Positions 13,407 through 19,000 of a stretch of DNA of 64,000 nt are shown piece after piece (within the stretch, counting starts at the first letter, position 1; every line of letters begins with the position of its first letter). The position numbers and the translations under genes were made by a program. A model generated the notes under the pieces. The model was not told where the DNA came from, did no database searches, and saw only the letters and a list, made by a program, of their open reading frames with translations. The stretch is from Promethearchaeota archaeon (GTDB lineage Archaea; Asgardarchaeota; Heimdallarchaeia; Hodarchaeales; Hodarchaeaceae): NCBI GenBank assembly GCA_048938105.1, contig JBHLMN010000010.1, positions 96,001-160,000 on the forward strand, in the 5' to 3' direction.

Positions 13407-14144
13407 ATGGAATCCTCCTCTGAAAGCCCTGTAATTGGTATTATTACTAGCAGCTTTACAGATGCAGGTCCACAAGTGATTTTTAACTCCACAAAAGACC
13501 ATATAACGGAAGATCAAGCTCTTAACCTTTCAATTCGGATTATGACAGTCATCGGGGAGGAAATCAGTAAGGATTTATATGGTCCTCTCCCTGTCCCTTC
13601 GAATGATGAACTTTTGTGCCTAGCTTATGTGTTTCGGGTAGAATCGACGTTCACTACAGACCCTAGACTGAAAGAACGACCAACAGTGATCAGTATAATA
13701 TTTAAAAGGTCCTTAAAAAGAGAAATGTCTCGTGCACAAGGGATTATTTTATCCTATCTTTCCCAAATGACATCTAAGGATTTTAAAGACGAGAATGACC
13801 TTAAACCAGTAAAAATGGAAGAAATTCATAACCGTCTTTCTGCATTAATTGCCACAAACCCAGTTCGTATCTATATGGTACAAGATGATCGCATTCAGGA
13901 ACACACAGGAACCCTTGATATGCCCACAGACGCATATGTTATTGCTGATATGCAGACAAATATCTTTTACATTATTTTCGAACCTTACATCTCACCATTA
14001 AGAAAACGGCAGGTTGTAATCCTTGTTGACTCTCTTAATGAAAAAACTTACCGGAGACGATTCAATAAACAGATAGTTGACTCTGAAGAAGAAGCTACTC
14101 GTCTTTTAAACTTCTATGGTTTGAAACACAGAAAGCAGCATTAA
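13407..14144 (+). CDS. Hypothetical protein: N-terminal longin/uDENN-like domain + C-terminal gelsolin-like domain
   Basis: N-term IGIITSSFTDAGPQVIF...LYGPLPVP...CLAYVF...DPRL...VISIIF. C-term IYMVQ...DAYVIADMQTNIFYIIFEPYISPLRKRQVV...KQIVDSEEEATRLL. Domain calls are pattern-based. Confidence 0.55.
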   Translation: MESSSESPVIGIITSSFTDAGPQVIFNSTKDHITEDQALNLSIRIMTVIGEEISKDLYGPLPVPSNDELLCLAYVFRVESTFTTDPRLKERPTVISIIFKRSLKREMSRAQGIILSYLSQMTSKDFKDENDLKPVKMEEIHNRLSALIATNPVRIYMVQDDRIQEHTGTLDMPTDAYVIADMQTNIFYIIFEPYISPLRKRQVVILVDSLNEKTYRRRFNKQIVDSEEEATRLLNFYGLKHRKQH

Positions 14145-14158
14145 TAAAGGGAGAGTAG

Positions 14159-14557
14159 TTGATTTTGAAGCTTGAAAGTGCTTATGGAATCGAACTAGAG
14201 AGTCTTAAAGACCTAGTTCGTCTTGTCTCGAGTTCGAGTCCAGATCGTCCCTCCACTATTTTTAAGTGGGACTCGGATAAAAATTCAGATGTATATTATG
14301 GATCTTTTGCAATATTTCCTGGATACTACGAATTTAAAGCCTTACCTGTTCTTTTCTTCGTTGTTCATAAATCCTCGATTGAAGAACAGAACCAATCCTT
14401 GGTACGTTACGATTTACAGGCCAAAAAAGATCAGATCTCATTTTTAAGTCACATAGAAGAGAGAGATCTGGAAAATGTTCACACAGGTTTAGTCCGTTTT
14501 ATCCCTATTGTAAAACTAAAAAAAGCACCAAAGATCTTTTCTGATATGACATTTTAA
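14159..14557 (+). CDS. Conserved archaeal hypothetical protein
   Basis: 132-aa ORF in an operon-like run (14/12-nt gaps), GGAG upstream; motif IELESLKDLVRL...YYEFKALPVLFFV...FIPIVKLK. Confidence 0.7.
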   Translation: MILKLESAYGIELESLKDLVRLVSSSSPDRPSTIFKWDSDKNSDVYYGSFAIFPGYYEFKALPVLFFVVHKSSIEEQNQSLVRYDLQAKKDQISFLSHIEERDLENVHTGLVRFIPIVKLKKAPKIFSDMTF

Positions 14558-15364: not shown

Positions 15365-16264
15365 ATGATACGAATCCCTAAACACATCTATGAAAAATTC
15401 TTACGTTTTGCTCTTGAGAATGCCAACCCCTTAGACTCACAAGACTGGAAAGAATGCATCGGATTAGTTTTAGGACGAATCACAGAAGATGAGGTTATTG
15501 TAACAGACATTGTCCCCATCGGATCTGGGACTGCAGTTTTTGTTGACATTACGGATTATGAAAAGGTCTTTTCGTTAATTTCACCTAGTAGGATTAACTC
15601 TGGAGAAGTCATTGTAGGATGGGCACACACTCATCCAGGACTTGGTCTCTTTTTATCAGCCACAGATATACGTACACAGCAGATGTATCAGCAGATGCAT
15701 CCAAAAGCATTTGCTCTTGTATTAGATCCCACAAAAATTTCCAAAAATTTCTCTGGATTCAACATCTATCGTCTTGATGAAGTAGGATCTCATCCCACAT
15801 TAGTAGATTATGATTTTGACGAGTATTTTGATTTTTTTGCCAGTCGAGAAACCCTTACCTCTGAATTATATCTAGTTCCAGTACCTGAAGTTCCAACCAT
15901 TATTTCGGAAAAAGAAATATCTTGGAAGGCTATAAGAATTATGCTCAATGGAGATACAGAGATTCCGGTTAATCAACCCTTTGAAGTAAAATTAGAAATT
16001 AATTTACCCTTTCGTCAATTCATTCGTATAGAATATCAAATAGAGATAGATGATATGACTGAGGATCCGTTCTCAATGCAAATGCTTTATAGTAAGACTA
16101 TTTATAACGAAACAATCACTTCAGGCACCCTTAGCATCTTTACTTTTCGTCCCAAAGAGAGAAAATCCACTTATATTCGTATTAAAGGCTTAATTTTATC
16201 AGATTACCGACAAAAACTTGAAAAAATGCCAGATTTATATTTAAAAACTCAAATTAAAGGATAA
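15365..16264 (+). CDS. JAB1/MPN (JAMM) metalloprotease, Rpn11/CSN5-like, with C-terminal beta-rich domain
   Basis: ECIGLVLG ... VGWAHTHPGLGLFLSATDIRTQ ... FALVLDP (intact E...HxH...S..D). Confidence 0.92.
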   Translation: MIRIPKHIYEKFLRFALENANPLDSQDWKECIGLVLGRITEDEVIVTDIVPIGSGTAVFVDITDYEKVFSLISPSRINSGEVIVGWAHTHPGLGLFLSATDIRTQQMYQQMHPKAFALVLDPTKISKNFSGFNIYRLDEVGSHPTLVDYDFDEYFDFFASRETLTSELYLVPVPEVPTIISEKEISWKAIRIMLNGDTEIPVNQPFEVKLEINLPFRQFIRIEYQIEIDDMTEDPFSMQMLYSKTIYNETITSGTLSIFTFRPKERKSTYIRIKGLILSDYRQKLEKMPDLYLKTQIKG

Positions 16265-16273
16265 TGGAGTTAT

Positions 16274-17020
16274 TTATTGGGCAGGTTCACGGTATTTACG
16301 ATCACCATATAATCCGAATATAACTAGTGCTAAGAAAATGAATAAAACACCTATAAATGCATAAATAATTACAACAGGTGGGGTTGGATAGCTTTTTATA
16401 AGGCTGAAAGTTATATTTTGGTGATAAAAACTATCGACTGGTGTTTCATCTCCACGATAAATATGATACTGCACTCGGAACACAAATTTGTAGATCCCAT
16501 ACCTAATTAGATCTAGTGAAGGAACAATTACTACTTCGGATTTAGTAGAATTAGGTTCAAGAATGAATTCAATAAGGTTAAGTTTGGGATCATCTGGATT
16601 ATAATAAAGAGAAAGAACTGCAGTACGATTCAAGGTATCTTTTTCTCCAGAAATCACTCTATAGACATCTACTGCAAAATGGTGGATGACTAGGCTCACT
16701 GAACTTCCAATTACAGTGGAATAGCTAGCATTAATACGAAGGGATGTTTTGTTCACCAATTGTGGTAATGGATATTCCTGAAATTCAGGATTTAATGCCT
16801 CTGAAATTAAATCATCTAGAGGTACAAATCGATTTTGGACCTTTGCTTCGATATTTACCACATCAATAATGAGTAAATCGTTACTAGCATTTACAGTGTT
16901 AGGAGATGATTTAATTGCAACTGGAAAAACAGAGTGTTGTTGACCAAAACCGCTTGAAATGGTAATTATTAACAATAAAATCATAGCTTTTGGAAATAAT
17001 TTTATCATTAGCTGTTTCAA
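16274..17020 (-). CDS. Hypothetical type I membrane protein
   Basis: N-terminal signal-like hydrophobic segment, beta-rich ectodomain, C-terminal TM (VVIIYAFIGVLFIFLALVIFGLY) and short charged tail. Confidence 0.75.
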   Translation of the reverse strand: MKQLMIKLFPKAMILLLIITISSGFGQQHSVFPVAIKSSPNTVNASNDLLIIDVVNIEAKVQNRFVPLDDLISEALNPEFQEYPLPQLVNKTSLRINASYSTVIGSSVSLVIHHFAVDVYRVISGEKDTLNRTAVLSLYYNPDDPKLNLIEFILEPNSTKSEVVIVPSLDLIRYGIYKFVFRVQYHIYRGDETPVDSFYHQNITFSLIKSYPTPPVVIIYAFIGVLFIFLALVIFGLYGDRKYREPAQ

Positions 17021-17971: not shown

Positions 17972-19000
17972 TTAATCAAGTTGCATTATTGGATATTCTT
18001 CAGTTAGTAAGCTTTCTATTACTGCTCGAATCGCATTTTGTGCTTCTTTAACTTCTTCAATATTGAAAAATTTACTAATTTCCTTTTCAACAAGATAATC
18101 TGGTTCTTTTTCCCCGTCTTCGGATAGAATAAGGAAGATTTCTTTTTCAAGTACACCACGAGAGAATTTCGTTTTTAATTGATTGAAAATAATCTCATAT
18201 GCAAGCATAATTTCTAATTGGTGATCATTGATTCTATTAATGACCCCCTCACTAAGAATTAGAACTGAAAAAACCTCTTTAACTCGATTAACAGAATTTA
18301 AAGTGAAAATAGGGACAAAAATCGGTTCAAAGCGACTCTCCACATGGAGTTGAAACAGATGAGCATTCACATAAACTCTATATTTATTTACAAGTTGGGA
18401 ATATTCCTTAAGACTAGAATGTATATTAGCTAGGGCACTTTTAGCTTTTTGAAATTCCTTTAAATGCTTCATTCGTTCAGCTTTTACTTTTTCAATAATA
18501 GAAGCAGTAGGGATGACTTTAAGGCCCATTCTAATCTTCATCCTCAACTGAACCTCAATCATTTCTGTGAAATCCTTATAAGGGATAATTTCACGTTTTT
18601 GCCGACGAATAGGATGAAGACGTTTGATATCTTCAAAAGCTTTGATTTCTGCTTCTAAGATAGATTGATTGTTGCACATGATCCACCTTGTTACCGCAGT
18701 AAAATATTGCATTCCTGTTTGAAAAGCTAATGAGTCTAAGGATTGAAATATAGGGATAGAAAATGCAATTAAAAGAAAATCTTCTCCCTCTTGTGATATT
18801 AATTGAAAAAAAAACGGACTAATCTTTTTATTTTCTCGCTGCAATAAACCATTAACACCGAAAAAACGGACACGATCAATCACATCCAATAATTCTTCAT
18901 ATTGGATGGTAACTCTCTCGAATTCCATAGCCATCCACTCTTCAATCACCAAGTGAAACTGAAACCTTTGACCTGGTGGAATATCATCCCGAGAGCTCAT
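17972..19000 (-). CDS. Hypothetical protein with degenerate M48/zincin-like C-terminal segment
   Basis: 342-aa ORF with AGGAG upstream; ILSEGVINRINDHQLEIMLAYEI. Confidence 0.7.
   Translation of the reverse strand: MSSRDDIPPGQRFQFHLVIEEWMAMEFERVTIQYEELLDVIDRVRFFGVNGLLQRENKKISPFFFQLISQEGEDFLLIAFSIPIFQSLDSLAFQTGMQYFTAVTRWIMCNNQSILEAEIKAFEDIKRLHPIRRQKREIIPYKDFTEMIEVQLRMKIRMGLKVIPTASIIEKVKAERMKHLKEFQKAKSALANIHSSLKEYSQLVNKYRVYVNAHLFQLHVESRFEPIFVPIFTLNSVNRVKEVFSVLILSEGVINRINDHQLEIMLAYEIIFNQLKTKFSRGVLEKEIFLILSEDGEKEPDYLVEKEISKFFNIEEVKEAQNAIRAVIESLLTEEYPIMQLD

Follow-up and report, generated by a model that had tools for sequence, protein, structure and literature searches.

Folliculin, GATOR1 and C9orf72-SMCR8 are complexes of longin-type GTPase-activating proteins (GAPs) that act at the lysosome to control Rag and Arf GTPases. 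It is the FLCN/NPRL2-type longins that switch these GTPases off in eukaryotes, where FLCN pairs with FNIP, NPRL2 belongs to GATOR1, and Rag-type GTPases are the clients of both FLCN and GATOR1. These GAPs work as heterodimers with a second longin subunit, and their arginine-finger residues are R164 in FLCN, R78 in NPRL2 and R147 in SMCR8. On the cytoskeletal side, few archaeal regulators of actin have a proven activity, and the gelsolins of Asgard archaea belong to these. Three Asgard gelsolin architectures have been described, termed ProGel (gelsolin alone), 1DGelX (gelsolin and after it a coiled-coil "X" domain) and 2DGel (two gelsolin domains) (Akil et al., 2020; PMC7444086). NPRL2-like longins are numerous in the same archaea, where fusions to two-component signalling domains have been reported (Liu et al., 2020/21; 10.1101/2020.10.19.343400). 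In this study we describe a gene that joins the two domain classes in one protein, found in a 64,000-nucleotide stretch of DNA from a Promethearchaeota archaeon (hereafter the window; contig JBHLMN010000010.1, C56:96001-160000 in the coordinates used here), which belongs to a genome of 5.85 Mb in 65 contigs that was searched as a whole. We use "LG" for this longin-gelsolin protein and for its family. With confidence that is evenly poised, we propose that LG is a cytosolic regulator with two domains, one of the "eukaryotic signature" proteins of Asgard archaea, in which a GAP-type longin domain would act on a Rag/Arf GTPase and a gelsolin domain would bind actin. The features on which this proposal is built are the following.

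13407..14144, plus strand: the LG gene, encoding the 245-aa longin-gelsolin protein, stop codon included (open reading frame (ORF) list, translation, orthologues).
13407..13856, plus strand: predicted longin domain of FLCN/NPRL2 type, residues 1-150, in the order beta-beta-alpha-beta-beta-beta-alpha-alpha (AlphaFold2, VIA-align, Foldseek).
13467..13472, plus strand: GP motif, G21-P22, at the start of beta-strand 2 (family alignments, AlphaFold2 model).
13659..13667, plus strand: D85-P-R87 in the beta4-beta5 loop, a candidate arginine finger (family conservation).
13857..14126, plus strand: predicted divergent gelsolin-homology domain of ProGel type, residues 151-240 (domain-only AlphaFold2, Foldseek, VIA-align, hhalign).

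The ORF starts with ATG and encodes 245 residues, in a window with a G+C content of 35-38% that the labels of close homologues assign to the Hodarchaeales (Heimdallarchaeia, Asgard). A first-pass annotation, made from the sequence, had read this ORF as a longin/uDENN-like domain fused to a gelsolin-like domain, had not recognised such a fusion as described, and had asked whether predicted structures would lack either fold. The ORF is present as it was given there, and so are the strings it had singled out, V-I-G-I-I-T-S-S-F-T-D-A-G-P at residues 9-22 and RIYMV...DAYVIAD...IFYIIF...SPLRKRQVV...VDSL...QIVDSEEE...LL at residues 153-234; when the models were run, both folds appeared, the longin by AlphaFold2, Foldseek and VIA-align and the gelsolin by the agreement of Foldseek, VIA-align, the ESM Atlas and sequence profiles. 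Homologues of the same length form 48 cluster representatives in the Hodarchaeales, with identities of 57-92%, and an exhaustive phmmer search collected 58 LG representatives at 50% clustering, many of them full-length at 22-32% identity. Pairwise identity within the LG orthogroup averages 68% over the N domain and 60% over the C domain. Because homologues keep the same length and identity is kept in both halves, the ORF is taken as a real gene and not a chance reading frame, and by the same sequence comparison both halves are, as far as conservation tells, under purifying selection. The full-length two-domain form was found in all 40 of the 40 Heimdall-class genomes searched, and also in metagenome-assembled genomes (MAGs) labelled Kariarchaeaceae, Wukongarchaeota and Lokiarchaeota.

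Modelling with AlphaFold2 from a 24-sequence alignment gave a predicted local distance difference test score (pLDDT) of about 81-93 across residues 11-150. The N domain of this model consists of strands at residues 9-18 and 21-27, a helix at 35-49, strands at 57-63, 66-79 and 90-100, and helices at 101-125 and 134-150. Its top Foldseek matches in the PDB were NPRL2 in GATOR1 (first), the longin domain of the Loki Roadblock-Longin protein and Npr2 of the SEA complex, with FNIP2, SMCR8 and Lst4 among the further top matches. VIA-align, an independent structure comparison against all representatives, returned the following for the N domain (rmsd, root-mean-square deviation).

8yqg_B, Loki Roadblock-Longin: Z 13.4, rmsd 3.3 A, 141 residues aligned.
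6nzd_H, FLCN: Z 11.5, rmsd 2.8 A, 134 residues aligned.
7o2w_A, C9orf72-SMCR8 complex: Z 11.4, rmsd 3.4 A, 137 residues aligned.
4zy8_C, Lst4: Z 10.9, rmsd 3.2 A, 130 residues aligned.
8fw5_C, NPRL2: Z 10.1, rmsd 3.0 A, 124 residues aligned.

These alignments span LG residues 3-155, except for 7o2w_A, which nominally extends to residue 182. The longins of SNARE, adaptor and TRAPP proteins rank lower (VAMP7 Z 9.8, sedlin Z 8.9). The structure models show residues 1-150 as a predicted longin domain, probably of the FLCN/NPRL2/SMCR8, or GAP-type, class. The best match, the Loki Roadblock-Longin protein, is dimeric in its crystal and is, like LG, an Asgard multidomain longin protein; it differs in carrying an N-terminal Roadblock partner domain instead of a C-terminal gelsolin, and the identity between the two is 16%. 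The likeness to NPRL2 was also followed beyond the longin domain, where long Foldseek alignments of 251-257 columns had suggested that the post-longin region of NPRL2 might correspond to the C domain of LG. This was ruled out, since the rmsd of those alignments is 12-13 A, VIA-align places just residues 5-152 on NPRL2 and Npr2, and no NPRL2 appears among the top matches of the C-domain model.

The string F-x-D-x-G-P at the N-terminus had been put forward in the first-pass annotation as a uDENN/longin hallmark, and this reading stood in part. A GP motif is reported in FLCN, NPRL2, SMCR8 and C9orf72, where it closes the beta1-beta2 loop or opens beta2 and lies beside the arginine finger; FNIP2, NPRL3, adaptins, TRAPP and DENND proteins are reported to lack it (PMC12290439, 2025), so that the string marks GAP-type longins and is not a general sign of uDENN or longin domains. 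GP and arginine marks have also been noted in Heimdall longins of "FLCN/SMCR8-type" (PMC12290439). In the AlphaFold2 model of LG, strand 2 begins at residue 21; G21-P22 is invariant in three family alignments and kept in 50 of 51 diverse family representatives, while D85 and R87 are kept in 49 and 48 of the same 51 and are invariant among the paralogues of this genome, Rag-cluster copies included. Given the strand order 2-1-5-4-3 of longin domains, the beta4-beta5 loop with R87 would share its edge with the beta1-beta2 loop. We infer from longin topology alone that R87 would be an arginine finger adjoining the GP motif.

Whether such a domain acts on GTP hydrolysis at all has to be weighed, for most longin domains are platforms or parts of guanine-nucleotide exchange factors (GEFs) (PMC12290439). 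The LG longin could accordingly be a non-catalytic, GEF-type or scaffold platform resembling Mon1-Ccz1, TRAPP, DENN or SNARE/adaptor-like longins, its GP and D-x-R positions being structural; the longins of VAMP7, sedlin, AP sigma/mu and Mon1/Ccz1 do match the N domain at Z 8-9.8, and a second longin subunit is not encoded beside the gene. We judge this quite unlikely, in view of the reported specificity of the GP motif for GAP-type longins (PMC12290439), the presence of GP and D-x-R in about 95% of the 51 diverse members (those from Rag clusters among them), and the fact that the top eukaryotic structures are FLCN, SMCR8/C9orf72, Lst4 and NPRL2.

The C domain required a model of its own. In the full-length AlphaFold2 model its pLDDT is just 55-60, and the domain was therefore refolded alone from residues 149-245 cut from 32 family members with identities down to 14%, which gave a pLDDT of 83 and a predicted template modelling score (pTM) of 0.74. 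In domain numbering, the chain runs through four strands (5-11, 14-18, 28-33 and 38-43), then a helix of 19 residues (49-67), one more strand (72-76) and finally a short helix (79-88). All 50 of its 50 best Foldseek matches in the PDB belong to the gelsolin family, with E-values from 1.6e-4 to 2.8e-2 and TM-scores up to 0.69; they include Thor ProGel on actin (E 1.6e-4), CapG, adseverin, domains G2 and G4-G6 of gelsolin, villin, severin, fragmin, and both Thor and Heimdall 2DGel. A wide VIA-align search likewise filled ranks 1-19 with gelsolin-family structures (Z 9.8-7.5), led by ProGel 7c2f_D (Z 9.8, rmsd 2.9, 85 of 88 residues), and placed the gelsolin-like domains of Sec23/24 below these at Z 7.1 to 5.3 (2nup_A 7.1; 1m2v_B 5.6), interleaved with ADF-H domains at Z 6.1 and below. 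Of the clusters in the ESM Atlas that bear a name, the nearest ones have PF00626 in 98-100% of their members.

Sequence profiles point the same way. When PF00626 was run over the whole genome, it found six canonical domains above the cut-off of 21 bits and one weak sub-threshold match elsewhere (E 0.93, 12.1 bits), with no match at the LG locus. The LG C-domain profile, in turn, aligns by hhalign with the six canonical domains at an E-value of 7.3e-5, in a register that pairs D-A-Y-V-I-A-D with V-Y-V-L-L-D and I-F-Y-I-I with I-F-L-W-I, and with the single PF00626-verified gelsolin at C52:422423 it reaches a probability of 93.7% and an E-value of 1.8e-7 over 91 columns. A hidden Markov model (HMM) of the C domain, searched against the genome in six frames, recovered itself, two paralogues and then, as the first non-family match, the PF00626 gelsolin of C52 (E 4.7e-5, HMM positions 5-95 of 99). 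The models, together with these profiles, show residues 151-240 as what is predicted to be a true but divergent single gelsolin-homology domain of ProGel type.

It could still be argued that the likeness is an artefact of modelling or convergence, and that the C-terminal 95 residues form some unrelated small alpha/beta domain: the low pLDDT of the full-length model, the moderate Foldseek E-values and the VIA-align scores, which with Z below 10 fall in the range where common arrangements occur, would all allow this. We find it scarcely credible, as the deeper domain alignment raised the pLDDT to 83, the gelsolin family accounts for all of the Foldseek top 50, VIA-align ranks 1-19 and the named Atlas clusters, and the hhalign results are an independent support from sequence, in which the first non-family hit of the C-domain HMM in 5.85 Mb was itself a PF00626 gelsolin.

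More serious is the question of what a gelsolin-like domain would bind. COPII Sec23, a GAP for Sar1, ends like LG in a gelsolin-like domain, which binds Sec31 and PPP motifs and not actin (PMC6775307), and the Sec23/Sec24 domains match the C-domain model (2nup_A Z 7.1; 1m2v_B Z 5.6). By this comparison the C domain may be a non-actin interaction or assembly module of a GTPase regulator, or, in a variant of the same idea, may bind the GTPase or a partner such as the protein of about 130 aa described below, or dimerise in place of the DENN or C-terminal domains of FLCN and NPRL2. The failure of PF00626 at the C domain would be in keeping with this, as would the basic nature of the conserved exposed residues of the long helix (K200, R201, R216, R217) and the lack of any actin-related gene near the copy in the window. 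We consider such a module possible but doubtful. Actin-binding gelsolin domains outrank Sec23/24 in every search (VIA-align ranks 1-19; the Foldseek top 50), so that Sec23 resembles LG less than true gelsolins do; the profile comparison is led by a canonical PF00626 gelsolin from the same genome, that of C52, whose helix has the same kind of basic start, V-R-x-[RK]-F; and a related longin is the conserved neighbour of a two-domain gelsolin. Sec23 also differs in overall architecture, since it lacks a longin and has zinc-finger, trunk, barrel and helical domains.

An actin-binding gelsolin domain remains the reading that we carry forward, and its closest known counterparts are the Asgard gelsolins. 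The best C-domain structure is Thor ProGel on actin, and both are single core domains without evident calcium-site residues; LG differs in that its C domain is missed by PF00626 and lies C-terminal to a longin, its actin binding being putative. Gelsolin domains carry a calcium-binding Glu at the start of the helix, where LG has S-P-L-R-K-R. Compared with the G1 domain of human gelsolin, the Asp of G-D-x-Y is apparently kept (D175) and the Glu at the helix start is presumably replaced by Arg (S-P-L-R199). The canonical single-domain gelsolins of this genome are likewise basic at this point. At its locus (G000:C52:419644-422668), the C52 gelsolin is a 308-aa frame made up of a gelsolin domain, an Ala/Pro/Thr-rich linker and a C-terminal domain, and a gene for a small Ras-superfamily GTPase lies about 2.3 kb upstream of it. 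The genome also has an actin gene of its own (G000:C61:69266-70372).

Paralogues of LG in the same genome lie among genes for GTPases and gelsolins. One full-length LG paralogue, of 273 aa, lies in a cluster on C52 (G000:C52:99775-103480), where a Rag gene (122 bits) and a degenerate Rag gene (27 bits) precede it and another Rag gene (117 bits) follows. A second full-length one, of 340 aa, on C28 (G000:C28:57969-62400) is divergent to an adjoining RagA-like GTPase gene (130 bits) and close to the gene for a 729-aa protein whose N-terminal part is a Rag-type GTPase domain. The Rag-type GTPase genes of these clusters lie at C52:99816, C52:102580, C28:60466 and C28:59573, and the clusters hold the four best Gtr1_RagA matches of the genome, which also encodes Arf/Rab-like GTPases. 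A third relative, on C65, is a longin-only protein of 306 aa, with GP and D-x-R in its longin and a coiled-coil tail, encoded on the same strand directly upstream of a 403-aa gelsolin that has two canonical gelsolin domains, a Pro/Thr-rich linker and an extra C-terminal domain; of 19 such loci in 17 genomes of the same genus, 18 retain this adjacency, at identities as low as 53%. On the evidence of gene order and domain matches, the longin class apparently has two ties to gelsolin domains, one through the fusion and one through neighbouring genes, and its tie to Rag-type GTPases is again one of neighbouring genes.

Some further details of these loci are worth recording. The other flank of the C28 paralogue is an Hsp90 gene, and its C-terminal extension resembles a winged helix, with the same extension found in the relatives P0072, P0078 and P0084. 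The C65 locus (G000:C65:12032-17495, minus strand) holds three co-directional genes, one of which encodes a membrane protein of 1050 aa; its large N-terminal part is rich in repeats and presumably lies outside the cell, and its tail is cytoplasmic. In relatives from other genomes (P0088, P0089, P0096) a GP-type longin follows a PAS domain and, in forms of 620-630 aa, precedes GAF domains, which fits the published fusions of NPRL2-like longins to two-component signalling domains in Asgard archaea.

The gene that precedes LG in the window is egsA, for G1P dehydrogenase, with a gap of 87 nt, and what follows is a small conserved frame.

14159..14557, plus strand: downstream ORF of 130-132 aa, with a TTG start at 14159 or 14165 and GGGAG at 14149-14153.

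This ORF begins 15-20 nt past the LG stop, and trmI follows 12 nt after it, then without a gap a gene for a JAB/MPN protease. The mean column identity of the small ORF is 72%, with invariant F-A-I-F-P-G-Y and T-G-L-x-R-F motifs. It adjoins the LG orthologue in 18 of the 18 same-genus genomes that hold both genes, with consecutive locus tags in 10 of 10 named pairs, although all of these counts come from one GTDB genus whose genomes are not independent. The order EgsA, LG, small ORF, TrmI, JAB is retained in Heimdall B3 at 60% identity; at the locus of a relative of 43% identity the small ORF is absent, and its distant relatives in other Heimdall families are unlinked to LG. No match to the small ORF was returned from Pfam, the PDB or the Atlas, and the idea that it might be a second longin of FNIP or NPRL3 type was dismissed, as hhalign gives it a probability of 0.3% to the longin profile. 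Its product is a candidate partner of LG and no more. In ten genomes from other Heimdall families, a search of about 6 kb around the closest LG gene met no Rag GTPase, EgsA, TrmI, JAB or small ORF. One Hodarchaeales relative has an Arf/Ras-type GTPase gene 3.5 kb upstream.

Further along the window, the JAB/MPN (Rpn11-like) protease of 299 aa (15365-16264, plus strand) has a start codon that abuts the trmI stop; its catalytic domain covers residues 2-113, and the other roughly 185 residues are without a Pfam match. Two conserved ORFs without a Pfam family lie on the minus strand and flank the gene for V-ATPase subunit E, one of 248 aa (16274-17020) with hydrophobic segments at its N- and C-terminus and one of 342 aa (17972-19000) with a weak RasGAP_C-like stretch (E 0.023). 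In Heimdall B3 the vATP-synt_E gene is also flanked by Pfam-less ORFs of similar size, the likeness being one of size and position only.

Given these lines of evidence, we picture the action of LG as follows. The longin domain would dock on a small GTPase of the Rag/Arf family and probably stimulate GTP hydrolysis, with R87 as arginine finger, as in FLCN, NPRL2 and SMCR8. The gelsolin domain may contact actin through its long helix, as ProGel does, probably weakly and independently of calcium. In this way LG would either bring a regulator of GTPases to the actin cytoskeleton or relay the state of the GTPase to actin. The copy in the window is the strongly conserved stand-alone paralogue, with no GTPase client encoded beside it, and it may act together with the conserved protein of about 130 aa encoded downstream. 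By analogy with the described systems, the longin-gelsolin fusion suggests a link of GTPase signalling to actin in close archaeal relatives of eukaryotes, and this coupling, which the first-pass annotation had already put forward as an inference, gains indirect support from the paralogues in Rag clusters and from the conserved pair of longin and two-domain gelsolin in the same genome.

Several observations weigh against this picture and have to be set beside it. At the level of sequence, no relevant Pfam family was found at E <= 1 for the protein itself and 26 family members, Gelsolin, Folliculin and NPR2 all being silent. The advantage of GAP-type over SNARE-type longins in the structure comparison is small, at 0.3-1.7 Z (Z 10-11.5 against 9.8). 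No GTPase, actin or actin-regulator gene adjoins the LG copy in the window, where the neighbours are housekeeping genes (EgsA, TrmI, JAB protease), and in other Heimdall families, as in the Wukong, Loki and Kari MAGs, the closest LG genes likewise stand alone in contexts that vary. No second longin gene lies beside LG, and the downstream ORF is without longin similarity. The Rag and gelsolin neighbourhoods belong to paralogues, and the pair of longin and two-domain gelsolin comes from one genus with genomes that are not independent. Calcium control, too, is unlikely, because S-P-L-R-K-R stands where gelsolin domains have the calcium-binding Glu. Finally, Thor ProGel binds rabbit actin very weakly, with a Kd of 337 uM (PMC7444086), and the affinity of LG for actin may for this reason be low.

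Compared with the eukaryotic complexes, LG shares with FLCN, NPRL2 and SMCR8-C9orf72 the longin fold (Z 10.1-11.5), GP at strand 2 and a conserved Arg in what is predicted to be a neighbouring loop, and with FLCN and GATOR1 the company of Rag-type GTPases, among which its paralogues are encoded. It differs from FLCN and NPRL2 in having a gelsolin domain instead of a DENN or NPRL2-type C-terminal domain, with no partner longin nearby and with Pfam Folliculin and NPR2 silent, and its GAP activity is putative. The Asgard longins of NPRL2-like and FLCN/SMCR8-type are of the same class as that of LG, and the published accounts of them are without a gelsolin fusion (10.1101/2020.10.19.343400; PMC12290439). 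Our literature search, whose coverage is incomplete, found no paper on a longin-gelsolin fusion, in line with the first-pass annotation, which had not recognised one. A sequence-profile search of the PDB with the LG protein gave 0 matches and an Atlas feature search gave unnamed Heimdall clusters only. LG is a combination of two known domain classes that is apparently undescribed and is widely conserved, with both domains invisible to Pfam; because both escape Pfam, current counts of gelsolins and of FLCN/NPRL2-like longins in Asgard archaea are underestimates.

A bolder version, which we think unlikely, is that LG proteins are archaeal sisters or forerunners of the catalytic longins of folliculin, GATOR1 and C9orf72-SMCR8, and that in Heimdallarchaeia they wire Rag/Arf-type switching to actin filaments through their built-in gelsolin domain. 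If this were true, control of actin by a Rag-like nutrient or positional switch would predate eukaryotes, and the copy in the window would be the housekeeping version of a GTPase-actin link. As a single small soluble protein, LG offers a handle on whether archaeal longins already act as GAPs, and on whether a coupling of GTPase signalling to actin dynamics is older than the eukaryotes.

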